From positions 2,133 to 66,132 of the forward strand of contig JAJZTG010000003.1 of assembly GCA_021849125.1 (NCBI GenBank): 64,000 bases of DNA, in the 5' to 3' direction. The notes beneath the pieces are model-generated. The model searched no databases. It saw nothing but the letters and a program-made list of their open reading frames with translations, and was not told where the DNA came from. The position numbers and the translations under genes were made by a program. This DNA is from a bacterium. Its GTDB lineage: Bacteria > Patescibacteriota > Minisyncoccia > Phycocordibacterales > Phycocordibacteraceae. Shown in pieces: positions 7,088-27,472 of this stretch (its first letter is position 1; the number at the start of each line of letters is the position of its first letter).

Positions 7088-7088
7088 C

Positions 7089-8351: not shown

Positions 8352-8363
8352 GATCGAGAACCG

Positions 8364-8398
8364 CCCCAGATGTGAAAGTCCGACTTTCACATCTGGGG
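8364..8398. repeat. perfect 17-bp-arm palindrome (REP-like / terminator hairpin), core AAGTCCGACTT
   Basis: CCCCAGATGTGAAAGTC-C-GACTTTCACATCTGGGG, 13 nt after the stop at 8351. It shares a 20-bp identity with the element at 61041..61064. Confidence 0.7.
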
Positions 8399-8436
8399 CG
8401 GAAAGGGTAGTTTTACGGTATGCTTTCATTAATTTC

Positions 8437-9294
8437 ATGGACAAACAGAAACTCATCGTAGTCACCGGCGGGGCAGGGTTCATAGGCTCGCACCTCTGCG
8501 AGCGCCTGGTGAAAGACGGCCACAAGGTCATCTCGCTCGACAACTACTTCACCGGAAGCCGGGACAACCACGTTCCTGGCGTCGAGTATCGTGAGGGGCA
8601 CACCAAAGACATCGAGAAGCTTATCCCAGAGACGCCGGATATCGTTTACCACTTGGGAGAGTACTCGCGTGTCGAGAAGAGTCTTGAGGAGCCGGCGCTC
8701 GTCTGGGATTTGAACAAGGACGGCACATTCGGCGTTGTCGAGTTTTGGCGGAAAAAAGGAGGGAAGTTAGTCTACGCCGGTTCCTCGACTAAATTCGGTG
8801 ACGGCGGTCTCGGTCGTATGCAAAGTCCCTACGCATGGAGCAAGGCGAGTAATACCGAACTCATAAGGAATTACGGTGCGTGGTACGGGTTGCCGTACGC
8901 GATAACTTATTTCTATAACGTATATGGTCCAGGTGAACGGGCCGGCACATACGGCACCGTTATTGAGATATTCCGTCAGAAAGTGCTCGCAGGCGAGCCG
9001 CTTGAGGTTACGTCGCCTGGAACACAGAAGCGCAATTTTACGCATGTCGACGACATCATAGATGGCCTTATCTTGGTTGGCGAGGATGGTATCGGAGATG
9101 ACTTTGGTATCGGAGATGAAAAAGCATATTCGATTATTGAGGTGGCACAGATGTTTGGGAAAGAGATTGTCATGAAGCCTGCGGCGGCCGGCAATCGTAT
9201 GGGTTCGGATATCGATACCAGCAAGGTGCAGGCTCTCGGGTGGACTCCAAAGAAACATCTCAAGGAGTACATACGAGAAACGTTCGGTGCATGA
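8437..9294 (+). CDS. NAD-dependent epimerase/dehydratase, UDP-glucuronate decarboxylase (UXS)-like
   Basis: VVTGGAGFIGSHLCERLVKDGHKVISLDNYFTGSRDNH closely matches the UXS N-terminus. YAWSK catalytic YxxxK motif. Confidence 0.75.
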   Translation: MDKQKLIVVTGGAGFIGSHLCERLVKDGHKVISLDNYFTGSRDNHVPGVEYREGHTKDIEKLIPETPDIVYHLGEYSRVEKSLEEPALVWDLNKDGTFGVVEFWRKKGGKLVYAGSSTKFGDGGLGRMQSPYAWSKASNTELIRNYGAWYGLPYAITYFYNVYGPGERAGTYGTVIEIFRQKVLAGEPLEVTSPGTQKRNFTHVDDIIDGLILVGEDGIGDDFGIGDEKAYSIIEVAQMFGKEIVMKPAAAGNRMGSDIDTSKVQALGWTPKKHLKEYIRETFGA

Positions 9295-10502
9295 AGCGCG
9301 TATTAATATTCTCCCTTACATATTATCCGCGCTTCGTGGGCGGCGCGGAGGTTGCCCTCAAGGAGATCACCGATCGCATCTCTCCTGAGGAGATCGAGTT
9401 CCATATGGTGACACTCAGACTCGATTCTGAGTTGCCGGAGGAGGAAAAGATAGGGAATGTTATCGTGCACCGGATCGGCCTGACATGGAAAGCGCCTACC
9501 ATCGCCGATTTGCAAAAGTTTCCACTCAAGCTCACGAAATATTGGTACCAGTTCTCTGCAGCTCGCGCGGCGGAGAAGCTGCATCAGCAGTATCATTTCG
9601 ACGGCATCTGGGCGATGATGGCGCACTCATGCGCCGTTCCTGCCGGGATCTTCAAGAAGTGGCATCCAGAAGTGAAATATCTCCTGACTCTTCAGGAAGG
9701 AGATCCTCCCGAGTATATCGAGCGTCTCGCACGCCCGGTATGGCCGCTCTTCAAACGAGGGTTTACGAGTGCGGATGCACTCCAACCTATTTCGACCTTT
9801 CTTCTTAATTGGGGGAGAAGGATGGGCTTTACGGGTGAGGCTGAAATTATCCCGAATGCGGTGAATACGGCGCATTTCTCACAAGCGATAACGCCAGAAG
9901 CGCGCAACTCGACTCGCGCGGCCATCGTTCTCAAGTCTGACGATGTCGCACTGGTAACGACCTCGCGTCTCGTCCACAAGAATGCAGTTGATGATGTCAT
10001 ACGTGCGATCGCACTTCTTCCGGAGAATGTGCACTTCGTCATTTACGGCATCGGTCCGGACGAGGCCATGCTCAAGAAACTTTCCAAAGAGAGTGGAACC
10101 GAGAGACGCATCCACTTCATGGGGCAGATCGGCCATGATGAAATGCCGCGCGCGCTCAAAAGTTGTGATATTTTCATCCGTCCTTCGCGGTCCGAAGGTA
10201 TGGGGAATTCGTTTATCGAGGCCATGGCGGCTGAACTTCCCGTTATTGCGACACAGGAAGGGGGTATTGCAGATTTTCTTTTCGATGCGAAACGTAACCC
10301 TGACAAAAAGCCGACTGGTTGGGCTGTCGATAAGGATTCCCCAGAACAGATTGCTGAGGCAGTTAAGGACATCATCGGAAATCCGCTAGCGGTTGCACAA
10401 GTGCTTGAAACGGCACGTGAGCTTGCTATAGAGAAATATGATTGGAATCTCATTGCTGCACGCATGAAAACACTTTTCGATCGGCTTCTCGAAAGCAGGT
10501 AA
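9291..10502 (+). CDS. glycosyltransferase family 4 (GT-B)
   Basis: C-terminal GT1/GT4 signature region SRSEGMGNSFIEAMAAELPVIAT. ATGA-coupled to the upstream gene. Confidence 0.75.
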   Translation: MKRVLIFSLTYYPRFVGGAEVALKEITDRISPEEIEFHMVTLRLDSELPEEEKIGNVIVHRIGLTWKAPTIADLQKFPLKLTKYWYQFSAARAAEKLHQQYHFDGIWAMMAHSCAVPAGIFKKWHPEVKYLLTLQEGDPPEYIERLARPVWPLFKRGFTSADALQPISTFLLNWGRRMGFTGEAEIIPNAVNTAHFSQAITPEARNSTRAAIVLKSDDVALVTTSRLVHKNAVDDVIRAIALLPENVHFVIYGIGPDEAMLKKLSKESGTERRIHFMGQIGHDEMPRALKSCDIFIRPSRSEGMGNSFIEAMAAELPVIATQEGGIADFLFDAKRNPDKKPTGWAVDKDSPEQIAEAVKDIIGNPLAVAQVLETARELAIEKYDWNLIAARMKTLFDRLLESR

Positions 10503-10511
10503 AATAATTGT

Positions 10512-11612
10512 ATGAAAATAGTCGTCGCGACGCCTTTGTATCCGCCTGAGCCGGGCGGGCCTGCCACGTACGCGAAAGCCCTTGAAGAAGGTCTTCCAGG
10601 GAAGGGCATCGAGGTCGTGCTCGTTAAGTTCGGCGAGGTGCGGCACTTGCCGAAGATCGTGCGGCATATCGCATATTATCTGCGCGTACGTCGTGCGCTC
10701 AAAGGAGCCGATCTCGTGCTTGCGCTTGATCCGGTCTCGGTCGGCCTGCCGGCCTGCCTTGCCGCATGGACGCTTCGGAAGCCGCTCGTCGTGAAGGTGG
10801 TGGGCGACTACGCCTGGGAACAAGGGCAGCAACGTTTCGGTGTCACAGCTACGCTCGACGATTTCGTCCAGCATGACGATGCGCCATTTATGGTCGGGCT
10901 CTTGCGCGAAGTGCAGAAGGGCGTCGCCGAGTATGCGGCGCGTATTATCGTGCCGAGCGAGTATCTCAAAGGGGTCGTCGTCGCGTGGGGCATCCCGAAA
11001 GAAAAAATCACGGTTATCTACAATGCGGTCCCGCAAGGGAGCGTGGGCGAAGTGCCCAAAGCAGTGGCGATGCTGCCGCGTCCGCTCGTGGCGACGGCTG
11101 GCCGTTTGGTCCCCTGGAAACATGTCGACAGCATCATCGATACAATCGCGGTGCTTCGCCAGCAGGGAAGCCATGTGTCGCTCGCTATCATCGGGAGCGG
11201 GCCAGAACAGGCGCATCTTGAAGCGCACGCAAAGAAAGCGCTCGGCGCGCACGTCGTATTCACCGGCGCCCTGCCGCACGAGGATCTCCTCGCGAGTCTC
11301 GCAAGCGCAGATGCCTTCGTGCTCAACTCTTCGTATGAGGGGCTCTCGCATCTGCTCATCGAAGCGCTCGCGCTTGGCGTACCTACGGTCGCGACTGATG
11401 TCGGTGGCAACCCGGAGGTCATCACGCACGGCGCTACAGGGCTTCTCGTACCAGCGGGGGATACGGACGCCCTCGCTGGAGCGCTTACACGCCTTCTCTC
11501 AGAAAACGATCTGCGGGAGCGTGTCGCGCGTGCGGCCAAGGAATCCGTCCACCGTTTCTCAAAAGGAACGATGATCGAACACACCGCTGAGCTGCTCGTT
11601 TCTTTTTCGTAA
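10512..11612 (+). CDS. glycosyltransferase group 1
   Basis: E-x7-E region NSSYEGLSHLLIEALALGVPTVATDVGG. Confidence 0.75.
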   Translation: MKIVVATPLYPPEPGGPATYAKALEEGLPGKGIEVVLVKFGEVRHLPKIVRHIAYYLRVRRALKGADLVLALDPVSVGLPACLAAWTLRKPLVVKVVGDYAWEQGQQRFGVTATLDDFVQHDDAPFMVGLLREVQKGVAEYAARIIVPSEYLKGVVVAWGIPKEKITVIYNAVPQGSVGEVPKAVAMLPRPLVATAGRLVPWKHVDSIIDTIAVLRQQGSHVSLAIIGSGPEQAHLEAHAKKALGAHVVFTGALPHEDLLASLASADAFVLNSSYEGLSHLLIEALALGVPTVATDVGGNPEVITHGATGLLVPAGDTDALAGALTRLLSENDLRERVARAAKESVHRFSKGTMIEHTAELLVSFS

Positions 11613-11615
11613 TCC

Positions 11616-12752
11616 ATGAAAGCCCTCTTCGTCTCAAACGACCCGAATATCTTCGACCCGAAAAGCGACGTGCGTGCGCGCATGCGCGCGTATGCGGAAG
11701 CGATCGGGGAGCTTCATATCATCTCGGCAGGACCGGTCTTTGCACGCGAGGAGCACGACGGGGCGCTCTACGTGCACCCGGTGTATGCGGGGAAGCTCTT
11801 TCGCATGAAGCTTCTCACACGTCGTGCCGTGGCGCTTATCCGCGAGTACGACATCGAGATCGTTTCCGCCCAGGATCCGTTCGAGCATGGGCTCGCCGCG
11901 CTTCGTGCGGTCGAAGCTGCCGGCATTAAGCTCCACGTCCAGGTGCATACGGACTTCCTCTCGCCCTGGTTCGTACGGGAAGGGAATTGGCGCAGCCCGA
12001 GCATCCGGATGCCACTCCTGAACCGTTGGCGGCGCAGCATCGCTGACCGCGTGCTCCCGAAAGCCGATGGTATCCGCGTCGTCTCGGAGCGTGTGAAGGA
12101 TTCGCTCATCGCGCGTTACGGGTCACGTATCCCGGAGCCGTCGATCATCCCGGTCGCGGTCGATGCGACCGTGCCCGAGAAGAAGCCGCTTCCGCCGCAT
12201 CCGTTTACCTTCGCGCTTCTTGCGGTCGGCCGTTTGGAGCCAGAGAAGCGTATCGAGGATATCCTTGCCGCACTTAAGCTCGTCATTCCTCAGTACCCGT
12301 CGGTCGGGCTTTGTATCGCAGGTGAGGGGAGGGAGTGGCGCAAGCTCGAGCGCATGGTTCGCAAACTCAAGCTCAAAGACCATGTGCTCTTCCTCGGGCA
12401 TCGAAGCGATGCGCGTGCGCTCATGGGGAGCGCTCAGGCGTTCATCCAGGCAAGTGCGTACGAAGGCTACGGCCGTACGCTCGTTGAGGCGGCACTCGCG
12501 AAGGTACCGATCATCACGACCGATGTCGGCATCGTCGGCGAGGTGTTCAAGGGGTACGAAGACGTGCTTGCGGTACCGGTGGCCGACCCGACCGCTCTCG
12601 CGCTTGCGATCGCTGGTCTTCTCGAAGATGGTGCCGTGCGTATCGAGTTCCCGCTTCATGCTGAGGCTGCCGCACGCGAGCATCTCGAGAGTATCGGCGA
12701 CCTCCCGTCGCGCATCGCCGAGGATTTCTCAGAGACACTGCAAAGGGCGTAA
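11616..12752 (+). CDS. glycosyltransferase group 1
   Basis: ASAYEGYGRTLVEAALAKVPIITTDVG. Confidence 0.7.
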   Translation: MKALFVSNDPNIFDPKSDVRARMRAYAEAIGELHIISAGPVFAREEHDGALYVHPVYAGKLFRMKLLTRRAVALIREYDIEIVSAQDPFEHGLAALRAVEAAGIKLHVQVHTDFLSPWFVREGNWRSPSIRMPLLNRWRRSIADRVLPKADGIRVVSERVKDSLIARYGSRIPEPSIIPVAVDATVPEKKPLPPHPFTFALLAVGRLEPEKRIEDILAALKLVIPQYPSVGLCIAGEGREWRKLERMVRKLKLKDHVLFLGHRSDARALMGSAQAFIQASAYEGYGRTLVEAALAKVPIITTDVGIVGEVFKGYEDVLAVPVADPTALALAIAGLLEDGAVRIEFPLHAEAAAREHLESIGDLPSRIAEDFSETLQRA

Positions 12753-12797
12753 CCTCCATTTCCTCACCCTGGTTATCCAAGGTATAGTGCGCTTAAT

Positions 12798-13643
12798 ATG
12801 ACGATTGGCTTCATCGGGCAGGGTTTCATAGGGAAGAACTACGCGGACGATTTCGAGGCGCGTGGCCATATGGTCGTGCGCTACGCGCTCGAGGAGCCGT
12901 ACGTGCAGAACGTTGATGCTATCCGCGAGTGCGACATCGTCTTTATCGCCGTCCCGACACCAACGACGCCTGAGGGATTCAGTACGGAAATTCTCGAGGA
13001 CGCGCTTACGCATGTGGGCGCAGGGAAGATCGCAGTCATCAAGTCGACCGTGCTGCCAGGTACCACCCGACGCCTTCAAGAAAAGCACTCGGGTCTCACG
13101 ATTCTCATGTCTCCAGAATTCCTGAGTGAAGCGACCGCAGCGTACGACGCGGCACATCCGTTCTCGAACATCGTCGGACTGCCTGTTGATGATGAGGTGC
13201 ACCAGAAGGCAGCAGAAGCGGTGCATGCGCTCCTGCCGGCTGCACCCTACGCGACGATGTGTACGAGCGATCAGGCAGAGCTCATCAAGTACGCGCACAA
13301 CGTGAGCGGCTATACGCAGATCGTCACGTTCAATATGCTTTACGAACTCTCGCAGTCTCTCGGGGCCGATTGGGCCCCGATCGAGCAAGCGCTCGATGCC
13401 GATCCGATGATATCGAGACGATATGCGCACCCGCTTCACAAGAGCGGTCGCGGTGCGGGCGGTCACTGCTTCATAAAGGATTTCGCGGCGTTGCGCGGTC
13501 TCTATGAGCAGGTGGTCAATGATCCGGCGGGGAAGGCGGCGCTTGTCGCATTCGAAAAGAAGAATATCGAGCTCCTCCGTAATACGCATAAGGATCTCGA
13601 TCTGTTGCGTGGCGTATACGGAGATGACGTGCCAGACGCATGA
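12798..13643 (+). CDS. nucleotide-sugar dehydrogenase (UDP-glucose/GDP-mannose dehydrogenase family), C-terminally short
   Basis: GxGxxG (IGFIGQGFIGKN), VPTPT, EFLSEAT and catalytic-Cys GGHCFIKD motifs. At 281 aa it lacks the usual C-terminal UDP-binding domain. Confidence 0.65.
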   Translation: MTIGFIGQGFIGKNYADDFEARGHMVVRYALEEPYVQNVDAIRECDIVFIAVPTPTTPEGFSTEILEDALTHVGAGKIAVIKSTVLPGTTRRLQEKHSGLTILMSPEFLSEATAAYDAAHPFSNIVGLPVDDEVHQKAAEAVHALLPAAPYATMCTSDQAELIKYAHNVSGYTQIVTFNMLYELSQSLGADWAPIEQALDADPMISRRYAHPLHKSGRGAGGHCFIKDFAALRGLYEQVVNDPAGKAALVAFEKKNIELLRNTHKDLDLLRGVYGDDVPDA

Positions 13644-14692
13644 AGCTTCTCATTACCACACAGGCAGTAGACCAGAACGATCCAGCGCTCGCGTTCTTTT
13701 TGCAGTGGGTGAGCGAGTTCGCTAAACATTGCGAACAGGTCACTGTCGTGTGCCTACGAGAGGGAAAGTACACGCTTCCGGATAATGTTCGCGTAGTCTG
13801 CATCGATCCGAGCCGTCGTTCCTCACGCATCAGTCGTGCAATACGCTTTATTTCGTTCATGTTCCGTGAACGCGCATCGTACGACACCGTGTTCGTGCAT
13901 ATGAATCCCGAGTACCTCGTACTCGGTGGTTGGTACTGGCGCTTGAGGGGTATCCGGAGCGGCCTGTGGTATACGCACCGGAGCGTCGACCTGAAGCTCC
14001 GTATCGCGACCCTTTTCGCAAACATCGTATTCACGGCATCTCCCGAAGGATTCCGCCTGAAGAACGACAAAGTCTGTGCCATGGGGCACGGTATCGATAC
14101 GGACCGATTCCATCGAGAGATCTCTGATCTCAAGCTGCACAAGCCACTCAACCTGCTCTGTGTCGGGCGCATTACGCCTATCAAGGATCAGAAGACCGCC
14201 GTCGAGGCACTCGCGCTCTTGAAAAAAGAAGGTGTCGACGTGCATCTTACGTTCATCGGCGTGCCAAGCGCGGTGGGTGATGATGCGTACGCACACGAGG
14301 TCAAGGAATTGATCGCGCAAAAAGGGCTCGAAGGGCAGGTGACCTTTGCCGGTGCCGTGACGTATGACGACATGCCGAAACAGTATGAGAACATGGATTT
14401 TTCCCTCAATCTTTGTCCGACAGGAGGACTCGACAAGGTCGTGTTCGAGTCAATGGCAGCAGGCGTACCGACGCTCGTCGCCAATACCGCATTCGCGAAT
14501 CTTTTCGGGCCGTATAAAGATCTACTTGTGTTCCGGCATGGTAATGCTCGCGATCTTGCGATGAAAATAGAAGCGATTGCCCGCTTGAGCGAGGAGAGTT
14601 TGCGCGATATCCGCATTGAGCTTGGCCGTACCGTGTGGGGGAAAGCTGATGTCAGCGCGTTAGTGACGAGCATTGTACAATACCTCATATGA
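13640..14692 (+). CDS. glycosyltransferase family 4
   Basis: GT-B C-terminal region CPTGGLDKVVFESMAAGVPTLV. Confidence 0.7.
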   Translation: MKLLITTQAVDQNDPALAFFLQWVSEFAKHCEQVTVVCLREGKYTLPDNVRVVCIDPSRRSSRISRAIRFISFMFRERASYDTVFVHMNPEYLVLGGWYWRLRGIRSGLWYTHRSVDLKLRIATLFANIVFTASPEGFRLKNDKVCAMGHGIDTDRFHREISDLKLHKPLNLLCVGRITPIKDQKTAVEALALLKKEGVDVHLTFIGVPSAVGDDAYAHEVKELIAQKGLEGQVTFAGAVTYDDMPKQYENMDFSLNLCPTGGLDKVVFESMAAGVPTLVANTAFANLFGPYKDLLVFRHGNARDLAMKIEAIARLSEESLRDIRIELGRTVWGKADVSALVTSIVQYLI

Positions 14693-15309
14693 AGCAGGTC
14701 GACCGTGGTGCCTATGCGTTCGAATGTTATAGCGGCGAGGATCGTTTCGCGAGTTATTATGTACAGCTTCGCGAAGTGTTTGCATGTGCACCATCCTCTG
14801 TACTGGAGGTCGGTACCGGAGAGCATGTGCTGGGGAATTATTTGAAGAACAACACGGACATCGCTTACACGTCGCTAGATATCGCCGAAGATCTCTCTCC
14901 AGATATCGTCGGTGATGTCCGGAAGCTCCCGTTCCCCGACAATTCGTTCGATGTCGCCTGTGCCTTCGAGGTGCTCGAACATCTGCCGTTCGATGATTTC
15001 GAGCAGGCAATCGGCGAACTCATGCGCGTATCGAAGAAGCAAGTCATCATAAGTCTCCCGCACTTTGGCCCCCCGATTAAATTTCTTCTCAAGGTTCCGT
15101 TTTTCCCCGAGGCCCGTTTTGCCTTCAAGATCCCGTTTCCGCGCAAACATATGTTCAATGGCCAGCACTACTGGGAGATAGGGAAGCGTGGCTATCCAGC
15201 GCACCGCATCCGAGCTATCCTTGCGCGTTTCGGGACACTACGGAAGGAGTTTACGCCATTCGGAAATCAGTACCACCACTTTTTTGTTCTTGAAAAGAAT
15301 CATGCGTAG
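14689..15309 (+). CDS. class I SAM-dependent methyltransferase
   Basis: Motif I VLEVGTGEHVLG, followed by an acidic post-I motif. Confidence 0.65.
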   Translation: MKQVDRGAYAFECYSGEDRFASYYVQLREVFACAPSSVLEVGTGEHVLGNYLKNNTDIAYTSLDIAEDLSPDIVGDVRKLPFPDNSFDVACAFEVLEHLPFDDFEQAIGELMRVSKKQVIISLPHFGPPIKFLLKVPFFPEARFAFKIPFPRKHMFNGQHYWEIGKRGYPAHRIRAILARFGTLRKEFTPFGNQYHHFFVLEKNHA

Positions 15310-16066
15310 TTGGTTTAAAAATATCGTTTTCGGCCTTCTTCCGAAGGCTCGACTCAAGGAAGACGAGGCAATCATTCTTATGTATCATTCGATAGGCGAT
15401 CGAAAGGATTATTTCTCATCTGTGTCAAAAAAGTCTTTCGTTCAGCAGATGGAATATCTGCATGCGGCAGGTATTCCGGTAATTTCGCTTCCCGAACTCA
15501 TTCGGCGTCTGAAGGATGGGCAACTGCTCGGTGGCGCCGTGGTCATTACGTTTGACGATGGATATGAAGATAATTATCTAGCCGCGTTTCCCGTACTCAA
15601 ACGATTTAATTTTCCCGCCACGATCTTCCTTACGACCGATCTTATCGGGAAGGAAGATAAACGTAATCTTAGCCGTTTGAACGGCGAACAAACACGAGAA
15701 ATGGCGCAATCGGGTTTGATTTATTTCGAACCCCACACGAGGTCGCATCCGCGGCTTTCGCAGCTACCTGAAGATGAGGTCCGAGAAGAAATAGTAGGCT
15801 CGAAAAAAGCCGTTGAAGAGCTGACGGGGAAGACGTGCAGCTCGTTTGCCTATCCGTATGGGGATTACAACCACGTTGCGAAGAGATTGGTGGAAGAAAT
15901 TGGTTTCGAGGCTGCCTGTACGGTGAAAGAAGGATTAATCCATCACGAGACGGACCCATTCCTTCTCAACCGGAATTCGATAGACCGCTCAACTTCATTC
16001 GTGCAATTTCGCGCAAAGGTCTCGAGGGGGATTTATATGTATGAGAAACTTAAGGTATGGAACTAG
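15302..16066 (+). CDS. polysaccharide deacetylase (NodB/CE4 family)
   Basis: ITFDDGYEDNY, FPATIFL and the HTRSHP His motif. Start trimmed to MRSWFKN at 15302. Confidence 0.8.
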   Translation: MRSWFKNIVFGLLPKARLKEDEAIILMYHSIGDRKDYFSSVSKKSFVQQMEYLHAAGIPVISLPELIRRLKDGQLLGGAVVITFDDGYEDNYLAAFPVLKRFNFPATIFLTTDLIGKEDKRNLSRLNGEQTREMAQSGLIYFEPHTRSHPRLSQLPEDEVREEIVGSKKAVEELTGKTCSSFAYPYGDYNHVAKRLVEEIGFEAACTVKEGLIHHETDPFLLNRNSIDRSTSFVQFRAKVSRGIYMYEKLKVWN

Positions 16067-16701
16067 CTTTTCTCGCGCAGCAGACATTAGATGGTAAGAC
16101 TATCGGTAGAGCGCTCTTCAATGCGCAAGTAAAACGTCATATGCGTGGTTTGTCTGGCAACACGCTCGATCTTGCCAGTGGCGGTTCGGCGGGGTATCTA
16201 CGCTACGCCCAGAGAGGGCTTCATGTTTTACGAACCGATGTGCATGACGGGGATGGAATAGATATGGTGGTCGATATAGATCAAAGATTGCCATTCCACG
16301 ACGGCGAATTCGATCATGTGCTCCTTTTCAATGCTTTGTACGCAATAAAGGATCCAAATCGCCTCCTCAAGGAGATGCGTCGTGTCGTACGAATTGGCGG
16401 ATCGGTGCTCGTAGCCTCCCCTTTTCTGAGTAATGAGATGCCAGAACCTCATGACTATAGACGGCTTACTTCCGAAGGACTCAGGGAATTGTTCGATGAA
16501 GTCGGATATTTGACCATACAAATCATCCCATACGGCGAACGTTTTTCGGTCATGGCGAATCTCCTGCATCCTTTTCTGATGTTTAATATCGTACGTTTGC
16601 CGATTTATCTACTCGCGTACGTGCTTGATGCTTGTATCCCTGAGAAAACTCGCACACTGCACCCGGCTCCTATCGGATATTTCTGCATACTCAAGAAGTG
16701 A
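16057..16701 (+). CDS. methyltransferase type 11-like
   Basis: TLDLASGGSAGY motif I, acidic residue, and FNALYAI. Confidence 0.6.
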   Translation: MELAFLAQQTLDGKTIGRALFNAQVKRHMRGLSGNTLDLASGGSAGYLRYAQRGLHVLRTDVHDGDGIDMVVDIDQRLPFHDGEFDHVLLFNALYAIKDPNRLLKEMRRVVRIGGSVLVASPFLSNEMPEPHDYRRLTSEGLRELFDEVGYLTIQIIPYGERFSVMANLLHPFLMFNIVRLPIYLLAYVLDACIPEKTRTLHPAPIGYFCILKK

Positions 16702-17804: not shown

Positions 17805-17810
17805 TAACCT

Positions 17811-18437
17811 ATGTTTAAACGACCCTGGGAAAGTTTCTTCGATGAACGGATAGGACGCATGTGCGCGACGTCTTCTCGCGTGCTTGATATCGGCGCCGGC
17901 TTGCGTATCTCTAAAGAATACGGGAACCGTGAAGATCCGACACGCGCATGGATAGGAGATATCGTGCAATCACGGAAGGTCGACTACGTGGTGTTGGATT
18001 ACGTCGACACGTATCATCCGCATATTGTGGGGGACATACAGGATCTGCCTCTTCCCGACGACTCCGAAGAGAACATTGTTTGTCTCGCGGTCCTCGAGCA
18101 TGTTGAGAACCCATTCAAATCGTTTGCAGAGCTCCATCGTGTCCTCAAGCCAGGAGGGAAGTGCCTTCTCTATGTCCCATTCCTGTTCTATTACCATGCC
18201 GAAGGAACGTACTACAAGGATTATTGGCGCTTTACTCCCGACTCATTGAGCACGCTCACGAAGCCGTTCTCGACGATGGAGTTGGCGAGCGTGCGCGGCG
18301 CATTCGAGACGCTCGTACGGCTCTCGCCATTGGGGCGATGGAATTTCTTCCTCGATATGGCTTTCTTACTGGATAAAATGACAGGGAAACTCGCTTCTAA
18401 ACAAGTAAGCGGCTATTACGTATGGCTCGTCAAATGA
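17811..18437 (+). CDS. SAM-dependent methyltransferase
   Basis: VLDIGAGL motif I and LKPGG. Confidence 0.6.
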   Translation: MFKRPWESFFDERIGRMCATSSRVLDIGAGLRISKEYGNREDPTRAWIGDIVQSRKVDYVVLDYVDTYHPHIVGDIQDLPLPDDSEENIVCLAVLEHVENPFKSFAELHRVLKPGGKCLLYVPFLFYYHAEGTYYKDYWRFTPDSLSTLTKPFSTMELASVRGAFETLVRLSPLGRWNFFLDMAFLLDKMTGKLASKQVSGYYVWLVK

Positions 18438-18454
18438 TGCTACGGATGCATGTG

Positions 18455-18463
18455 TGGTACACT
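18455..18463 (+). promoter_or_regulatory. extended -10 TGGTACACT
   Basis: Upstream of the FkbM gene, with a 43-nt leader. Confidence 0.35.
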
Positions 18464-18506
18464 TCGCTCACTACGAGCTGGCGCGCATTTTTGCATCAGG
18501 TAACCC

Positions 18507-19316
18507 ATGTCTATCCTTAAACGATTCGTCGAGAAGGTCAGAGAGAGCGTATTTCTCTCCTCAAAGCTTGGCGCGTCGCTCAGCACCAAGATCCTTTTAT
18601 TCATCCTTGTCTGGTGGTTTCCGTTACGCCGTGTTCTTAAGCTCCGAGCGCGAGCAACCGCGGTAAAGCTCAAGGCCCAAAGTGGGCAACAGTTCTTCTT
18701 TACGCTTAAGGACAGCACCGACGTAGCCGTACTTCGTGAAGTGTTTCTTGACGGGGAATATGTCGTGTCGCTCGAAGCTGAACCGAAGGTCATTTTCGAC
18801 ATAGGGAGCAACATAGGCGCTTCGGTCATCTATCTACATCTCAAATACCCATCCGCGAAAATTTACGCCTTCGAACCGAATCCGTATATCTTCGATCGTT
18901 TGCGTGAGAATACCCGTCAGTTCTCGGGAATCGAGATCTTCCCCTATGCCGTTTCTGATACGGACGGGACTATCGAATTTTTCGCATACCCCGACAGCCA
19001 TCTGTCCTCATCGGTGATACAAAGGACGGAAGGACAAAAGCCGATCTCAGTTCCTTCCCGTTCTCTCAGTTCACTCATGCGTGAATTATCGGTAGCGCAT
19101 GTTGATCTCATGAAATTTGATATAGAAGGGGGAGAGGGGCGCATGCTGCGCGACACAGAAGGGCTTAGTAAGATCGGTGCGCTCATCGGCGAGGTGCATT
19201 TCGATCTGATGGATGACACCAAAGAGTCGTTTGAGAAGCTTCTCTCGGGTTTTGACGCGACCTATCGGCCGATAAAACCGACTCGTGGTATCGTGACAGC
19301 ACGCAGCCTTTATTGA
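18507..19316 (+). CDS. FkbM family methyltransferase
   Basis: VIFDIGSNIGASVIYL, YAFEPNP and FDIEGGE are hallmarks of the FkbM fold. Confidence 0.7.
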   Translation: MSILKRFVEKVRESVFLSSKLGASLSTKILLFILVWWFPLRRVLKLRARATAVKLKAQSGQQFFFTLKDSTDVAVLREVFLDGEYVVSLEAEPKVIFDIGSNIGASVIYLHLKYPSAKIYAFEPNPYIFDRLRENTRQFSGIEIFPYAVSDTDGTIEFFAYPDSHLSSSVIQRTEGQKPISVPSRSLSSLMRELSVAHVDLMKFDIEGGEGRMLRDTEGLSKIGALIGEVHFDLMDDTKESFEKLLSGFDATYRPIKPTRGIVTARSLY

Positions 19317-19320
19317 CGAT

Positions 19321-19809
19321 ATGAGATTTTTTCGGAAGATTCACGAAGTCGATTCCTGGGTTATGCTCAGGATACGTACGCGTTATTGGCGTCTTGTGTT
19401 CAGCAGTTTTGGAAGAAGATCAGCAGTGCTTGGTCGAATCACCGTCGTCGGCCCGAGTCGTGTTCGCATCGGGGACCATGTAACCCTAAATGAGGGCGTG
19501 ATTATAAACGCGCAGCAGTCTCTCGACATCGGAAATCATGTCGCAATCTCTCCGGGAGCGATGCTCCTTACAGGAGGTCTCGTGTTTGAAGGCCGAATGC
19601 GCACCGACCGGCCACATGAACATAAGCCCATCGTCATCCGAGACGGTGCATGGATATGCGCGGGCGCGATTGTGCTTGGAGGGGTGACAGTTGGGGAAGA
19701 TTCTATCGTGGCCGCTGGCGCGGTGGTTCGCGAGGACGTGCCACCTCGGACACTGGTCGGTGGAGTACCCGCTCGCCCCATCAAAAGTCTGAATATTGAA
19801 ACGGTATGA
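19321..19809 (+). CDS. hexapeptide-repeat (LbH) acetyltransferase
   Basis: Left-handed beta-helix repeats: [27 protein letters not shown] and [30 protein letters not shown]. Confidence 0.75.
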
Positions 19810-21704
19810 GTACGAATTCTAGTGTCGGATATAACGAAGAGTACGCACGGTCGGTGGCCGAAACGGAGAAGTACTGGCAAGAGGCAGGGAAAAGGATTGA
19901 TTGGATTCGCCCGTACTCAAAAGCGGACGGATCTTCTTATGCGGGGAACGTGCAGATCAAGTGGTATGAAGATGGGACTCTTAATGTCGCTAACAACTGT
20001 GTAGATCGGCATGCGCGCGTACGACCCGATGCCCCAGCAATCATCTGGGTCGCGGATTCTGAAGGAGAGTCCCTTGTTATTTCCTACGAAGATCTGAGGA
20101 AGAATGTAAACAGGTTTGCCAACGTCCTGCGGATGCAGGGTGTAAAAAAAGGAGATCGCGTAACGTTATACATGCCTATGATCCCTAAGGCAGCGTATGC
20201 CATGCTTGCCTGCGCACGCATAGGGGCGGTCCATTCAGTCGTATTCGCCGGGTTTTCTGCCGAGAGTCTTGCTAATCGTATTGTTGACGCCGAGTCCCAT
20301 TTCATCATTACCGCTGATGAGGGTCGCCGCGGAGGGAAACGCATCCCGCTCAAGGAAACAGTCGATGAAGCGCTCAGGATTGCACGAATGGACGCGAAGG
20401 TGTTGGTCGTGAAGCACACGGGCGGGGATGTCAGTTTTTCGGAAAGACGCGATGTGTGGCTACATGATGTATGGGGGACTGTAGGTACAGAATGCGAGTC
20501 TGAGGAAATGTCCGCCGAGGACCCGTTTTTCATATTGTATACGTCCGGCTCTACCGGGAAACCGAAAGGGTTGGTTCACACAACCGGAGGATACCTCGTA
20601 TATGCGTCTATGACGCACGAGCGTATCTTCGCCTATCAGCCCGGGGAAGTGTATTGGTGTACGGCGGATATCGGTTGGATTACCGGACATAGCTATTTAG
20701 TGTATGGTCCGCTCGCAAACGGGGCGACGACGCTTATGTTCGAAGGTGTACCGAATCAGCCGACGCCGAAACGTATATGGGACATCGTTGATGAATGGAA
20801 CGTTTCCGTGCTCTATACCGCACCGACGCTTATCCGTTCTCTCATGGCGGCTGGAGATCGTTGGCTCGAAGGAACGAGTCGAAAATCTCTCCGTATGCTC
20901 GGCACGGTCGGCGAGCCAATAAATCCTGAGGCGTGGCGCTGGTACTACGAGAAAGTCGGCGACTCGCGTTGCCCGATTGCTGATACCTGGTGGCAGACGG
21001 AAACAGGAGGTGTACTCATAACCCCATTACCTGATACTGCGCCGCTGAAGCCAGGTGCCGCGATGAAGCCGTTTTTCGGGATAATCCCGGATATCGTTGA
21101 TGAGAACGGAGAGAGTGTACCACAGGGAACCCAGGGGAGGCTTTTGATACGAAGAAGCTGGCCGGGACAAGCACGTACGATACATGGTGACCATGCTCGC
21201 TTTATGGAGACATACTTTTCTGCTGTCCCCGGTGCGTATCTGACGGGAGACGGTGCGCATCGCGATGTCGACGGAGATTACTGGATAATCGGAAGAGTAG
21301 ATGATGTCGTGAACGTCTCGGGACATCGTTTCGGCACGGCCGAAATCGAGTCAGCGCTAGTAGCGCACCCTGCCGTCGCTGAGGCCGCTGTGATTGGCGT
21401 CCCGCATCCTATAAAGGGTCAGAGCTTGTTCTGCTTCGTCATTCTCCGTGATGGATACCAAGACGACGAGGGGCTTATTGCTCAATTGAAACAGCAAGTA
21501 CGAGCCGATATAGGCGCTATCGCGGTTCCAGATGATGTCGTTTGTGTCCCGGGCCTTCCCAAGACGCGTTCCGGGAAGATTATGCGCCGCATATTACGGA
21601 AATTGGTCGCAAGAGAAGATGATTTGGGCGATGTCTCGACGCTTGTCGATCCTCGTATCATCGAGGAGATCAAAACAGCATTGTCACTTAATCGGCAAGT
21701 TTAG
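19806..21704 (+). CDS. acs: acetyl-CoA synthetase (AMP-forming)
   Basis: 632 aa. [14 protein letters not shown]-binding motif, WWQTETGG, and a C-terminal [13 protein letters not shown]. Confidence 0.9.
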
Positions 21705-22941
21705 CAAACTGCCAGAGGGAGAGTAGAGCGCTAGTCGCCCGGAACAATCCTTGGGCTGCAATCGCGCCGGCCACTCCGTAGAAATATACGAGCGGGCCTA
21801 CCGAAACGATGAGTACGAGTGAGCCGATGTTCGTGATCAGGTACAGGGCGCGTGTTTTCTGATGTGCCTGGAGCACACTGGTGAGAATCGCGGTGATTCC
21901 GGTGAGGATTATGATAGGCGCGTACCACTGGGAGTAGGAGACGGCGCTCGTGTATACAGGGAAAAGCACCTTAAAGAGGTAGGGTGCAGCGAATATGTAG
22001 AGAACGCTCACGATGGTTATGCCGAGCGTGAGAATAGATAGTCGTCGCCAGAGCGAAGCACGTATTTCTCCGATAGGTCGAGCAGCGAATTTAGGCAACG
22101 AAAGCGATGCGGCATTCTTCGCGAGTGTCTTGATCTGCTCGGGTATGGCGATGGCGTACGCGTAGACCGCGAGCGAAGCCGGGCCAAGAAGCGTAAACAC
22201 GACGATGCTGTCTATACGATCAGCGAGCGTCGCGACGAACGTCATGATACTCAGGTGGGTACCGTAGGTGAACGTCTTCGGGTCGGTCGCGTCGTTGCGT
22301 ACTTGTTTCTTAGCGAGCAAATAGAACGCGATGCTTACCAACGCAGCCGTAAGAAAGTATGTAAGAACGAAGAGAATGGCGCGGTTCGTAAAGAACAGCA
22401 CAATGATGAGTGCTGCGGCGGACAGGAATGAACCGATGATGTTATAGATGCTGCTTCGTGCGAACTGTTTCTTGCCCAATAGAAAAGCATTGAAAAGTGA
22501 GAAGCTGTTCGTGAAAGGTAAGAAAAAAGCAACAAGGAGGAGAGCTATACCAAGAAAAGCGTTCTTGGCGACGAATAGATAGTACAGAGCGGTAGCTAGA
22601 GACAAGAGAATGACACCTCCGCTCCAACGGAGACTCAGTCGGAGGCCTTGCTTAAGAGACCCTTCATAGTCACGCGCAACTGCCCGAGTAATAGCAGTGC
22701 TGAGGCCAGTCAAGGAGAAGGCACCAAATATGGCGGCCAAAGATAAAACGTATTTATAGTTTCCGTACGCGTCTTGGCTTGCTAGGTGGCCGAACGCCAC
22801 AGCAAGGAGAAGTGCGAAAAATGATCCAGAAACCTGTTCGAGCACGAGCCAAAAGCCGCCACGGGATAGGTAGACCATGTCGGTCTTTGTATATTTTTCG
22901 CTCCAGCGGAGGAAGCGATAGAAACGGCTCTGGGAGTCCAT
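21688..22941 (-). CDS. polysaccharide biosynthesis protein / oligosaccharide flippase (Wzx/MOP superfamily)
   Basis: Roughly 12 hydrophobic segments. ATG start at 22941 is preferred over the TTG at 22968. The 3' end overlaps acs by 17 nt in a convergent arrangement. Confidence 0.75.
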
Positions 22942-23010
22942 GACTGTATATGAAGTATAACCGCCCAAGTTATCCCAGGGTAGCGTGGTTGTCCTTCTTG
23001 CCGGGAGAGG

Positions 23011-23016
23011 TATACT
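23011..23016 (+). promoter_or_regulatory. -10 TATACT plus SD AAGGA for the 23057 gene
   Basis: Divergent intergenic region 22942..23056. A TATACT on the opposite strand (22954..22959) serves the flippase. Confidence 0.35.
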
Positions 23017-23056
23017 TACAGGCGTTATTCCTAAGTAACCAATATAAGGATTTCCT

Positions 23057-23878
23057 ATGAAGGATTACATGAAAGTGATAGGTGGGGCAGCAGTTGCCGC
23101 AGCGCTCGCTGGCGCGCCGCTCGTTGCGCTCGCTGAGGACAATGGCGGAGATAGCGCGCAAGTAGAGGTGCAGACGACGGGTGCGACGGCTCCGACGGAG
23201 GTTCAGAAGATGAACCGCGAGCATGCGCGCGAAGTCGCTCAGCAGATACGTGAGCAGGCAAAGAGCCGCGCTGAAGACATGCGCGCTTCTTCGACCGATG
23301 GGACTGACGAAGCATCCATGAACGAAGATATGGAGCAGGAGGATATGCCTGATTTCCGCGAGAATGAGAATGTCTCTGCGGCTCGGTCATTTGAAGATCT
23401 CAAGAACAAGATCGAGATGCGCAAGCACGAGCTCGAGCAGGAGCTTGCAAGCAGCACCGAGAAGGAACACGGGGTAGTGGCGAATGCCAACCCGGTCCGC
23501 CTCGCGGTCCATACCCTCCTCGCCTCAAAGGACCTCCTGGGCGGCATCGGTAGCCAGGTCTCTGAGATCGCCAAGCACATGAACGACTCGGTGGCCTCGA
23601 CGACGGCGGCAGAGGAACAGATCCAGTCGCGCGGGTTCTTGAAGCGCCTTTTCTTCGGAGGCGACAAGGCCGCAGCGAACGCGATCGATAATGCCGTAGA
23701 GCAGAACCAGCAGCACATCGATGAGCTCACGAATGCTCTCAATCAGGCGAACGTCTCAGCGGAACTGAAGGCGACGCTCGAGGCACAGATTGCAGCGCTC
23801 AAGGATGCTCAGGAACATCTTCAGGAAGTTGCACAGAAGGAGCAGCGCACCTGGGGTATCTTCAGCTGGCGTTTCTAG
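23057..23878 (+). CDS. secreted coiled-coil protein
   Basis: Signal peptide MKDYMKVIGGAAVAAALAGAPLVALA. The remainder is charged heptad-like sequence. Confidence 0.55.
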   Translation: MKDYMKVIGGAAVAAALAGAPLVALAEDNGGDSAQVEVQTTGATAPTEVQKMNREHAREVAQQIREQAKSRAEDMRASSTDGTDEASMNEDMEQEDMPDFRENENVSAARSFEDLKNKIEMRKHELEQELASSTEKEHGVVANANPVRLAVHTLLASKDLLGGIGSQVSEIAKHMNDSVASTTAAEEQIQSRGFLKRLFFGGDKAAANAIDNAVEQNQQHIDELTNALNQANVSAELKATLEAQIAALKDAQEHLQEVAQKEQRTWGIFSWRF

Positions 23879-23900
23879 CCGGAGCTTCTCTTACGAGATA

Positions 23901-23940
23901 AAGAGCCGCCCCGCGCTTCGCGCGGGGCGGCTCTTTTCGA
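23901..23940 (+). terminator. rho-independent terminator
   Basis: 15-bp GC-rich stem AGAGCCGCCCCGCGC/GCGCGGGGCGGCTCT with a TTCG loop, then TTTTCG. Confidence 0.85.
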
Positions 23941-23961
23941 GTGTGGTATAGTCTCTGCATC

Positions 23962-26133
23962 ATGCAGGAGACCGGTACGGCCAAAGGGATCGCGCGATGG
24001 ATCGCGCTTGCGGCACTCTTCCTTATCCCGTTTGCGCCGCTCGTCGTCGCGGACACGTTCTTCTTCCCGTTCATTACCGGCAAGGCTTTTTATATCCGCG
24101 TGCTTATCGAGATCGCGGTCTCGGCTTGGGCTGTCCTTGCGTTCCTTGATAAAGAATACCGGCCGCGTTTCTCGTGGGCGGGCGTCGCGGTCGTCGCATT
24201 CGTCGCCTGGATGGGGTTCGCTGACCTCTTCGCCCTGAACGTCGCAAAGGCTTTCTGGAGCAATTTCGAGCGCATGGAGGGGTGGGTGTTCCTCGTGCAC
24301 CTGCTCGGCTTCTTCTTCGCGGCAAGCGCGGTACTGCGAGCTGAGAAGAAGTGGCGCGCGTGGTTCCTCACGTCGCTTGGCGTCTCGCTCGTTGTCGTAG
24401 GCTACGCGCTCCTTCAGCTTGATGGAGCACTCGCGATCCATCAGGGCTCGACACGTATCGACGCGACCTTGGGCAACTCCGCCTACCTTGCGATCTACTT
24501 CCTCTTCAACGTGTTTATCGCGCTCTGGCTCGCGCTTACCGAGCGCCGCGCCTGGCTCAAATGGGCGCTTCTCGCGCTCGCGCTTCTCGAGGGCGTGCTC
24601 ATCTTCTTTACCGAGACGCGCGGTACCGTGCTCGGTCTGGTCGGCGCGCTCGCGCTTGCGGCCGCGCTCACCGCATTTACGGCAGGGAAGCGCGCTCGCC
24701 AATGGGCCGCGCTTGCCCTTACCGCGATCATCATTCTCGCCGGTGGTTTCTATCTCGCGCGCCAATCGTCATTCGTGCAGGACAATCATGTGCTGCAGCG
24801 TATCGCTTCCATCTCGCTCGCTGATGGGCAGGTGCGCTTCACGATCTGGCATATGGCCTACGAAGGGATGCTGGAGCGTCCGATCCTCGGCTGGGGGCAG
24901 GAGGGTTTCAATTACGTCTTCAACAAGTATTATGACCCGTCCCTCTACAATCAGGAACCATGGTTCGACCGCGCCCATAACGCTTTCATCGATTGGCTCA
25001 TGGCGGGCGGCATCCCGGCGCTCATGCTCTACCTCTCGCTTTTCGGTGCTGCGGTAGCGCTGCTCTGGAGGAGCTCGGAGCTTTCGCGTCCGGAGCGCAT
25101 CGCGCTCACGGCCGCGCTTGCGGGCTATGCGGTGCATAATTTCTTCATCTTCGACAATCTCTACTCCTACATCTATTTCTTCGCGATCCTCGCGCTCATC
25201 GATTCGCAGGTCGCACGTCCTATAGCGCGTCTTGAGCAGCTTCCTCAGCTTGGAGCGGAAGAGGGTATGACCTATGCGCTCCCGATGGCTGCCGCACTCG
25301 CGTTCGTGCTCGTCTGGGTGGTCAATGTGCCAGGCATGCAGGCTGCAACGAAGCTTATCGTGGCGCTTTCGCCTGCAACCGGCACGACAGGGAACATTGC
25401 CGCGTTCGAAGACCTTGCTGCGCACCCGTCGTTTGCCGCGCAAGAGATCCGCGAGCAGATCGTCTCGTTCGCCATAGCGACGGTCCAGGGCTCGTCTGCG
25501 ACGAATGAGGAGAAGCAGCGGGCAGCAGCACTCGCCGTGCAGGAGATGCAGAAACAGGTTGCCGCGTATCCGCTTGATGCACGCGGCCGTCTTGAGCTTG
25601 CGCTTGCGTATCGCATCGCAGGGGATACGGAGCATTCTCTCAAGGAGTTCGAAGCTGCGGCGGAACTCTCGCCGAATAAGGAACAGATATGGGTTCAGAT
25701 GGGTCTTCTTGCTTGGAATACCGGGAACATCGAACGGACGCAATCAGCATTCAACGCCGCCTATACGCTCGGACCGCAATTTGAAAACCTCGCGGCCTAT
25801 GCCGCCGCGGGCGATATAGTCGCCGGTGATATTAAGGACGCGGATAAGATCCTTACCGATGTATACGGCACGACGCTCGTCGATAACGATATCCTCGCTT
25901 CAGCGTACTATCGTACGAAGAATTGGCCGCGGCTTATCGCGACCTGGAAGCTGCGCGCCGATAAGCCCGATGCGACGCCGAATGATTGGTTCGGCCTTGC
26001 TGCGGCGTATTACGCATCAGGCGACATGACGATGACCGTCCGTACGCTCCGTGAGACGTCCGCACGCTTCCCTGAAGCGGCAAGCGCGAGCGAAGAAGCC
26101 ATCTCACAGATACGCGCCGCGACGGGCCGATGA
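23962..26133 (+). CDS. Wzy_C/O-antigen ligase-like polytopic membrane protein fused to C-terminal TPR domain (candidate glycan ligase or O-oligosaccharyltransferase)
   Basis: About 12 TM helices plus the periplasmic loop typical of O-antigen ligase/PglL. C-terminal TPR-like helices. ATG at 23962 is preferred because the extended -10 TGGTATAGT lies at 23944. Confidence 0.65.
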   Translation: MQETGTAKGIARWIALAALFLIPFAPLVVADTFFFPFITGKAFYIRVLIEIAVSAWAVLAFLDKEYRPRFSWAGVAVVAFVAWMGFADLFALNVAKAFWSNFERMEGWVFLVHLLGFFFAASAVLRAEKKWRAWFLTSLGVSLVVVGYALLQLDGALAIHQGSTRIDATLGNSAYLAIYFLFNVFIALWLALTERRAWLKWALLALALLEGVLIFFTETRGTVLGLVGALALAAALTAFTAGKRARQWAALALTAIIILAGGFYLARQSSFVQDNHVLQRIASISLADGQVRFTIWHMAYEGMLERPILGWGQEGFNYVFNKYYDPSLYNQEPWFDRAHNAFIDWLMAGGIPALMLYLSLFGAAVALLWRSSELSRPERIALTAALAGYAVHNFFIFDNLYSYIYFFAILALIDSQVARPIARLEQLPQLGAEEGMTYALPMAAALAFVLVWVVNVPGMQAATKLIVALSPATGTTGNIAAFEDLAAHPSFAAQEIREQIVSFAIATVQGSSATNEEKQRAAALAVQEMQKQVAAYPLDARGRLELALAYRIAGDTEHSLKEFEAAAELSPNKEQIWVQMGLLAWNTGNIERTQSAFNAAYTLGPQFENLAAYAAAGDIVAGDIKDADKILTDVYGTTLVDNDILASAYYRTKNWPRLIATWKLRADKPDATPNDWFGLAAAYYASGDMTMTVRTLRETSARFPEAASASEEAISQIRAATGR

Positions 26134-27155: not shown

Positions 27156-27320
27156 AAATTTTTCTGAAAATTTTTTCGTGAGTTATCCACACATATTTAT
27201 TTTTTGATACATAAAAAGTTTTTTTACGCGCAATAATATTGTGTAGAACATTTGTGTATGAAAATATTTCACGCGCAGATGGGTCGACATATAAACCAAC
27301 ACTTCTAATTCACCACCACC

Positions 27321-27464
27321 ATGGCAACGAAGAAGCGCAAGGCAGTCAAGAAGACCGCAAAGAAGGCAGTCAAGAAGGCAGCCAAGAAGGCCGTCAAGAA
27401 GACCGCAAAGAAGGCAGTCAAGAAGGTTGCGAAGAAGCGCAAGGCAGCAAAGAAGCGCGCATAA
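27321..27464 (+). CDS. lysine-rich histone H1-like small basic protein (47 aa)
   Basis: MATKKRKAVKKTAKKAVKKAAKKAVKKTAKKAVKKVAKKRKAAKKRA. Absent from the ORF track because it is under 60 aa. Flanked by an AT-rich promoter region and a canonical terminator. Confidence 0.6.
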   Translation: MATKKRKAVKKTAKKAVKKAAKKAVKKTAKKAVKKVAKKRKAAKKRA

Positions 27465-27472
27465 GCTTCAAA

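Follow-up and report, generated by a model that had tools for sequence, protein, structure and literature searches.

Several described enzymes frame the protein considered here, a 723-aa membrane protein that joins a Wzy_C domain to a C-terminal TPR region (hereafter the Wzy_C-TPR protein) and is encoded beside a surface-glycan gene island in a 64,000-nucleotide stretch of the Patescibacteriota contig JAJZTG010000003.1 (assembly GCA_021849125.1). This whole 64-kb stretch is referred to as the window. WsfB of Paenibacillus alvei is a predicted S-layer O-oligosaccharyltransferase with Wzy_C and a C-terminal TPR, and WsaB of Geobacillus stearothermophilus, for which the same activity is predicted, has a TPR partner protein, WsaA (PMC2943079). 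The slg clusters unite glycosyltransferases, a methylation step and export through Wzx or Wzm/Wzt, and PglL likewise carries a C-terminal TPR motif (PMC2943079). The oligosaccharyltransferases PglL, PilO (TfpO) and PglS show relaxed glycan specificity and use undecaprenyl diphosphate (Und-PP)-linked glycans from O-antigen-like loci (PMC3643930, PMC9829042); the PglL_A motif, by which PglL is told apart from WaaL, was established solely for Proteobacteria (PMC3643930). Finally, TacL (RafX) of Streptococcus pneumoniae, a protein of 397 aa, is a lipoteichoic acid ligase with a phosphocholine teichoic acid donor (PMC5727136).

The Wzy_C-TPR protein shares features with each of these enzymes. WaaL (7TPG of Cupriavidus metallidurans; WaaL/RfaL of E. 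coli) is the only significant solved relative by profile and fold, and an Arg/Arg/His set on a large external loop is common to both, but the Wzy_C-TPR gene lies outside any waa/core cluster, a lineage related to its host lacks lipopolysaccharide (LPS; PMC5220378), and the protein, which belongs to a large Patescibacteria family of its own, has a 13th transmembrane helix and an external TPR domain of 250 aa. With WsfB and WsaB it has in common the Wzy_C-TPR architecture, the mixture of glycosyltransferases, methyltransferases and exporter, and the occurrence in bacteria without LPS, a likeness drawn from published descriptions; unlike in those systems, no S-layer gene is recognised here and the ligase is a core gene located by MurB and SecA, outside the variable cluster. 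Wzy_C and the Arg/Arg/His set are also shared with PglL, PilO and PglS, from which the present protein differs in phylum, in envelope and in having neither an adjacent pilin gene nor a detectable PglL_A motif, itself a proteobacterial signature. Genes for PglL adjoin that of their acceptor, the pilin, in 21 of 31 cases. TacL, for its part, is a Wzy_C enzyme of a bacterium without LPS that brings an Und-PP-built polymer to a non-LPS acceptor, so that the chemistry could be analogous; nevertheless, the protein studied here does not fit the TacL type, as it has 723 aa and a TPR domain and its island contains no teichoic-acid genes.

The reading favoured here, with a probability of about 0.4, is that the Wzy_C-TPR protein acts as an en-bloc glycan ligase of relaxed donor specificity with a protein acceptor, that is, in general O-glycosylation.

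The Wzy_C-TPR protein and its family

23962-26133, plus strand: Wzy_C-TPR protein, 723 aa from ATG 23962, alternative start GTG 23941 (Pfam Wzy_C and TPR)

Genes in the window were called from a listing of open reading frames (ORFs) combined with Pfam and NCBIfam scans. For the Wzy_C-TPR gene, a start at ATG 23962 is more likely than one at GTG 23941. The product matches Pfam Wzy_C (PF04932) over residues 213-365 with 65.6 bits, against a gathering cutoff of 31.7, and otherwise only TPR; the polymerase-specific families O-ag_pol_Wzy, EpsG and WzyE gave no match at E<=10, and NCBIfam returned sub-threshold matches only. Membership in the IctB family (45 bits for a cutoff of 366) and among the exosortase-associated O-glycosylation ligases (43 bits for a cutoff of 188) was discarded. 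NCBI and ENA contigs contain an identical 723-aa protein, which databases already label as belonging to the O-antigen ligase family.

Comparison of the whole protein with the PDB, either by single-sequence phmmer or with a full-length profile, returned only TPR proteins. The family profile of the membrane domain had a single match, WaaL 7TPG (6.5e-8), in an alignment spanning the TRG, VRxxIW and DRAHN segments and including R299 and H346. AlphaFold2 models of the full-length protein and of the membrane domain alone reached pLDDT values of 96.3 and 94.9, respectively, and their fold comparison with Foldseek also ranked 7TPG first (1.4e-7, TM 0.52/0.59), followed only by the SEDS protein FtsW at approximately 2-4e-3. 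Sequence identity to 7TPG is approximately 16%. Scoring of 96-99 members of the family revealed as invariant R227, R287, R299, D343 and H346, together with E110-R111-M112, G178-N179 and F404-D405. Among these residues, R227, R299 and H346 correspond to the catalytic sets R215/R288/H338 of E. coli WaaL and R224/R298/H349 of PglL, following published equivalences (PMC3643930). In the TPR domain, E502, R548, P578 and Q581 are near-invariant. The topology, drawn from helix positions, the positive-inside rule and the secondary structure of the model without use of its coordinates, predicts 13 transmembrane helices with the N-terminus inside and all invariant residues on outer loops; helix 13 would place the TPR domain of approximately 250 aa outside the membrane, where the catalytic loop also lies. 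By its Pfam match, its Arg/Arg/His set and its predicted polytopic fold with a large external loop, the protein is a member of the WaaL/PglL superfamily. Regarding the comparison between WaaL and PglL subfamilies proposed in the preliminary description, WaaL 7TPG is the only significant solved relative and the catalytic triplet is kept, but the PglL_A motif that would point to PglL is absent.

The family is large and confined to one phylum. A Wzy_C-TPR relative is encoded by at least 599 stretches matched among the species-representative genomes of GTDB. Close relatives are approximately 70% identical across more than 120 clusters defined at 90% identity, and identity is 40-55% across the class. 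A search with the membrane domain retrieved 2252 clusters of 50% identity at E<=1e-30. All homologues of the Wzy_C-TPR protein come from Paceibacteria, Kaiserbacteria, Minisyncoccota or other Patescibacteria, and the window itself belongs to a genome of Paceibacteria/Kaiserbacteria type.

Genomic setting of the gene and the adjoining glycan island

The surroundings of the gene were counted in 80 related stretches from GTDB species-representative genomes. Of 66 loci with enough flank, 55 have MurB immediately 3' of the Wzy_C-TPR gene, and the stop codon of the one frequently overlaps the start codon of the other; SecA is found downstream in 57 of 58 loci, and 72 of 75 encode the TPR tail. In most cases the series continues with Obg, GatB, an HTH_17 protein and a giant fibre-like protein. 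In the window, this downstream block comprises:

26130-27155, plus strand: MurB, starting 4 nt before the end of the Wzy_C-TPR stop codon
27543-30059, plus strand: SecA (Pfam/NCBIfam)
30061-31038, plus strand: Obg (Pfam/NCBIfam)
31081-32499, plus strand: GatB (Pfam/NCBIfam)
32623-33420, plus strand: 265-aa HTH_17 membrane protein (Pfam)
34047-43754, plus strand: 3235-aa fibre-like protein with an HTH_17-like N-terminus, two Peptidase_S74 and two Bact_surface_Ig-like domains (Pfam)

On the upstream side, glycan genes were present in each of the eight contexts read with Pfam around the Wzy_C-TPR gene, but their content differs from one context to another. In 27 of 63 species-level loci, a Wzx homologue is encoded upstream on the minus strand, at a distance of at most 4 kb. 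The contexts inspected contain the following genes:

L001 and L002: full-length UDP-glucose dehydrogenase (UGDH), short-chain dehydrogenase/reductase (SDR), GFO, PMT_2, GtrA
L003: Wzm/Wzt ABC transporter, glycosyltransferases of families GT1 and GT2, one methyltransferase
L004: Wzm/Wzt ABC transporter, NeuB, two methyltransferases (one of FkbM type), SDR epimerases
L007: other GT4/GT2 glycosyltransferases, methyltransferases, Wzx
L008: PMT_2, methyltransferases (one of FkbM type), Wzx, GT2, GtrA
L009: PMT_2, methyltransferases, Wzx, SIS-domain protein
L024: GT4 glycosyltransferases, CMP-sugar cytidylyltransferase, NeuB, methyltransferases, Wzx

With the synteny to MurB and SecA constant while the glycan genes vary, Wzy_C-TPR is best described as a core gene of the whole lineage, adjoined at a constant position by a variable glycan island, and not as the last gene of that island. 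This departs from the preliminary description, which had treated the Wzy_C protein as a component of the locus. Hypervariable surface-glycan loci for O-antigen or capsule are alike in their variable content, their dip in GC and their fixed site by conserved genes; here, by contrast, the conserved flank consists of the ligase itself together with MurB and SecA, in a monoderm-like lineage of reduced genomes. In L007, the first Wzy_C-TPR gene is separated from MurB by an inserted PMT_2 (GT-C) gene and a second Wzy_C-TPR paralogue (L007 12279-15739), and PMT_2, GT2 and GtrA genes also neighbour the Wzy_C-TPR gene in L001, L002, L008 and L009.

The island of the present genome extends over 8437-22968 and includes the genes listed below, identified with Pfam except where another source is given:

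8437-9294, plus strand: extended SDR, 285 aa, resembling epimerases and UDP-xylose synthase (UXS) (Pfam/NCBIfam)
9291-10502, plus strand: GT4 (GT-B) glycosyltransferase 1, its start overlapping the SDR stop by 4 nt
10512-11612, plus strand: GT4 (GT-B) glycosyltransferase 2
11616-12752, plus strand: GT4 (GT-B) glycosyltransferase 3
12798-13643, plus strand: short ('mini') NDP-sugar-dehydrogenase-like protein, 281 aa (UDPG_MGDP_dh_N and central domain)
13640-14692, plus strand: GT4 (GT-B) glycosyltransferase 4
14689-15309, plus strand: Methyltransf_11 gene 1
15302-16066, plus strand: carbohydrate esterase family 4 (CE4) deacetylase
16057-16701, plus strand: Methyltransf_11 gene 2
16698-17804, plus strand: GT4 (GT-B) glycosyltransferase 5
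17811-18437, plus strand: Methyltransf_11 gene 3
18507-19316, plus strand: FkbM methyltransferase
19321-19809, plus strand: LbH acetyltransferase (WcaF-like hexapeptide type; Pfam/NCBIfam)
19806-21704, plus strand: Acs, acetate-CoA ligase (TIGR02188, 934 bits, above cutoff), its start overlapping the acetyltransferase stop by 4 nt
21688-22968, minus strand: Wzx-type (Polysacc_synt/MOP) flippase, convergent with Acs

The inventory of the preliminary description, with its five GT-B glycosyltransferases, four methyltransferases including one FkbM, CE4 deacetylase, LbH acetyltransferase, Acs, flippase and Wzy_C protein with TPR, was confirmed by the Pfam and NCBIfam scans, and the boundaries it had set at 8437 and 26133 both coincide with genuine gene ends. 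The flippase, which it had placed in the same orientation as the other genes, is encoded on the opposite strand. The genes of 8437-21704 are arranged head to tail on the plus strand and many neighbours share 4-nt overlaps, a tight packing that indicates an operon-like cluster and not a chance grouping. The ATG at 8437 is preceded by a hairpin located after the upstream PKD-domain gene. A scan for promoters and terminators over 8000-27600 gave counts equal to the shuffled expectation and was thus uninformative; a promoter-like site was observed at 22989-23016 and a hairpin at 23914-23929. The island is immediately preceded by the genes for a VirD4/TraG-like coupling ATPase (5207-7087) and for a protein with PKD, FlgD-Ig and LTD domains (approximately 6825-8351).

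GC content falls to approximately 0.51 over 14-20 kb, the part holding the methyltransferase, CE4, FkbM and acetyltransferase genes, from approximately 0.58 in the flanks, suggesting that the decoration module (14689-19809) may have been acquired separately from the GT4/dehydrogenase core.

Candidate acceptors and donors of the proposed ligase

As proposed from family knowledge, the cytoplasmic GT4 enzymes would assemble a polyprenyl-diphosphate-linked oligosaccharide, the methyltransferases, the CE4 deacetylase and the LbH acetyltransferase would decorate it, and the Wzx-type flippase would export it. The Wzy_C-TPR enzyme would then take whichever carrier-linked glycan the genome-specific island supplies and transfer it to a hydroxyl of a non-LPS acceptor, for which the favoured candidate is a secreted or surface protein, or several of them, bound via the TPR domain, and the outcome would be a general O-glycosylation system resembling the Gram-positive S-layer systems of WsfB and WsaB. 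The analysis shows the gene content, the fold, the conserved residues, the logic of the topology and the pattern of synteny; we infer the lipid-linked donor and the ligase activity as well as the relaxed donor specificity and the protein acceptor. A high conservation of the enzyme beside changing donor pathways is what would be expected of a ligase with relaxed specificity, such as WaaL or PglL, and not of a repeat-unit-specific Wzy.

Concerning the acceptor, lipid A/LPS genes (lpxC, kdsA) are absent from a related Parcubacterium genome, and the structure and biogenesis of the envelope in the candidate phyla radiation (CPR) have been described as unclear (PMC5220378). The 64-kb window likewise contains no lpx, kds or waa genes. 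In such a lineage an acceptor other than lipid A-core is to be expected, and lipid A-core itself is unlikely. The external TPR domain by the active site, together with the nearby Ser/Thr-rich surface proteins, tilts the interpretation towards a protein acceptor. Indeed, Ser and Thr make up 24.7% of the 3235-aa fibre-like protein, in which the Ser/Thr-rich motifs cited in the preliminary description were located, and 28-31% of the secreted ORFs at 55511, 57873 and 62257, for approximately 10% in the housekeeping proteins of the window. The proposal made there, of a glycan transferred to surface proteins and not to lipid A-core, gains from the WaaL/PglL-type residues, from the missing LPS genes of the related Parcubacterium and from the WsfB-like architecture, but its protein acceptor continues to be a deduction.

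Several observations weigh against O-glycosylation of proteins by this enzyme. The neighbours of the Wzy_C-TPR gene include neither a pilin nor a recognisable S-layer gene, and the 273-aa secreted protein encoded directly upstream of it occupies that position in only 8 of 72 loci, which form a subclade. PglL_A (PF15864) and Wzy_C_2 gave no match in the protein even at E<=10, and none of the genes in the window encodes a priming phosphoglycosyltransferase according to the Pfam and NCBIfam scans. TPR domains also occur in polysaccharide-export scaffolds and are no proof of protein recognition. The proximity of Wzx in 27 of 63 loci would also be expected of a Wzx/Wzy polymerase pair, and the frequent pairing with MurB could point to a function linked to the cell wall or just reflect a conserved gene order in streamlined genomes.

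In the leading alternative, the same ligase chemistry would serve a non-protein acceptor, either a membrane glycolipid (a lipoglycan or lipoteichoic acid-like molecule, in the style of TacL) or a cell-wall sugar, with the TPR domain as a scaffold to the wall-synthesis machinery. This is the less likely reading, yet it suits the same data: the fold and catalytic residues agree with any WaaL-type ligase, the MurB gene often overlaps that of the ligase, and MurD, MurI and MurC are encoded just upstream of the island, a linkage with which a wall- or lipid-linked polymer would be just as compatible. To our knowledge, there is no precedent for a WaaL-type ligase acting on peptidoglycan, which counts against a wall acceptor, and the adjacency of MurB is perhaps only conserved gene order. 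For a glycolipid acceptor, TacL offers the precedent of a Wzy_C protein needed, in a bacterium without LPS, for the attachment of Und-PP-built teichoic acid to a glycolipid, but TacL has approximately 400 aa and no TPR (PMC5727136), and no teichoic-acid-type genes (tag/tar/lic, or those for glycerol or ribitol phosphate) were found in the island with Pfam.

Less probable still, and quite doubtful, is that the protein is a Wzy-type polymerase of Wzx-flipped repeat units, with another enzyme attaching or releasing the polymer. Pfam Wzy_C includes polymerases too, and a Wzx gene adjoins here as in the related loci mentioned above; moreover, a module of three GT4 genes, the short dehydrogenase and a further GT4 gene recurs in other genomes, and such a conserved repeat-unit core could permit a conserved polymerase. 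Nevertheless, the sequence is very strongly conserved for a Wzy, the His of WaaL and PglL (H346) is invariant, the polymerase-specific Pfam families returned nothing, and no Wzz or polysaccharide co-polymerase (PCP) gene was found in the 64-kb window. ABC-type export through Wzm/Wzt needs no Wzy. The retention of the gene beside Wzm/Wzt islands (L003, L004), whose glycan is finished in the cytoplasm, is thus the clearest case against a polymerase. Finally, it is highly improbable that the adjacency is incidental, with a housekeeping envelope role for Wzy_C-TPR and an island glycan handled by enzymes encoded elsewhere. In favour of this reading, the gene lies in the conserved block of MurB, SecA, Obg and GatB beside a variable island, CPR genomes keep a strong gene order and the priming transferase missing from the window must be encoded elsewhere; against it, glycan genes of different content abut the gene in every context inspected, and a functional link best explains so persistent a glycan hotspot.

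Accessory enzymes, neighbouring proteins and significance

The sugar-nucleotide enzymes of the island differ from what their first annotation implied. GalE-type epimerases (4zrm, 8e-31) and human UXS (5e-29) are equally good matches to the SDR. When it is aligned with the human enzyme, Ser-Ser-Thr, the pattern of GalE-type epimerases, stands opposite the catalytic Thr-Ser-Glu, so that the Glu is missing and, of the UXS signature of Thr-Ser-Glu plus Tyr-x3-Lys, only the YxxxK part is present. Judged by its residues the SDR looks epimerase-like, and with the catalytic Glu missing, the UXS-like decarboxylase and UDP-xylose branch of the preliminary description are unsupported.

The UDP-sugar dehydrogenase reported there has retained the catalytic GGHCFIKD motif, but it is a conserved short form: its 281 aa lack the C-terminal nucleotide-sugar-binding domain, and hence the three-domain architecture of UGDH, and the TIGR03026 score is 123 for a cutoff of 190. 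This family comprises more than 120 clusters of 277-300 aa, approximately 65% identical and all from Patescibacteria. A truncated pseudogene, considered as an explanation, was rejected given this number of clusters of the same length. The family keeps the Cys/Lys/Asp motif, and its mode of UDP-sugar binding without a C-terminal domain is puzzling. In two loci of relatives examined around this gene, the GT4-GT4-GT4-dehydrogenase-GT4 module recurs with an SDR nearby, the short dehydrogenase occupying 6001-6867 in L010 and 6001-6861 in L011. A PKD-domain protein likewise precedes the homologous module in L011 (L011 1-794).

Acs, suggested earlier as an embedded supplier of acetyl-CoA, is indeed present and adjoins the acetyltransferase, with which the 4-nt overlap suggests that it may be co-translated here. 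It is nonetheless specific to this genome: no counterpart was found in the 80 related loci or in L007, a relative that is 88% identical and stems from the same sample. Given these absences, a conserved role of Acs in the pathway was rejected.

The secreted protein encoded between the flippase and the ligase is as follows:

23057-23878, plus strand: 273-aa secreted protein with a signal peptide and no Pfam match

Its N-terminal part is variable and acidic and contains Ser/Thr; its C-terminal part is a strongly conserved coiled coil that ends in WG(I/L)FSWR(F/L), here WGIFSWRF. The protein could serve as acceptor or have an accessory function. Its identification as a Wzz/PCP co-polymerase was rejected on account of the cleavable-looking signal peptide and the lack of a C-terminal transmembrane helix. 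Downstream, the 265-aa HTH_17 protein and the 3235-aa fibre-like protein have HTH_17-like starts that are 31% identical over 49 aa and are followed by a hydrophobic helix, and synteny of the two genes is kept in L003, L004 and L008. A DNA-binding-type and presumably cytoplasmic N-terminal motif is odd on a giant surface protein.

Other features of the window lie further downstream. The gene of the giant protein is followed by an NYN-domain gene (43884-44417) and, on the minus strand, by an IS200/Y1-transposase-like gene (44649-45338); a weak Y1_Tnp match was also observed inside the conserved SecA-Obg block of L008. Transketolase is split into an N-terminal (47737-48741) and a C-terminal gene (49368-50360), with RpiB, Rpe, GAPDH and a class-I aldolase alongside, an arrangement consistent with the reduced central metabolism of CPR type. 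Eight consecutive plus-strand ORFs of 251-462 aa occupy 53275-63162; they begin with signal-peptide-like segments and are without Pfam matches, several of them contain 25-31% Ser+Thr, and the group may be a cassette of surface proteins.

Both the logic of the cluster and the Wzy_C-TPR architecture are of known kinds and the gene content is ordinary, but no study of this ligase family was found in the literature on CPR bacteria and Parcubacteria. A further and somewhat unlikely proposal is that the family represents a near-universal, donor-promiscuous surface-glycan ligase of Paceibacteria, co-transcribed with MurB and SecA, that would couple the hypervariable, heavily methylated glycan of each species to emerging secreted proteins or directly to the wall, in which case the island would be the main determinant of the surface identity of the strain and hence of host or phage recognition in these episymbionts. 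As CPR bacteria live in attachment to other cells or depend on them, their surface is central to their biology. A WaaL-like enzyme that is found in at least 599 species-level genomes, is highly conserved and is fixed between a hypervariable island and MurB/SecA offers a testable entry to the CPR envelope: if its acceptor is a protein, general O-glycosylation would be extended to the CPR, and if it is a lipid or the wall, a new envelope polymer would be defined.

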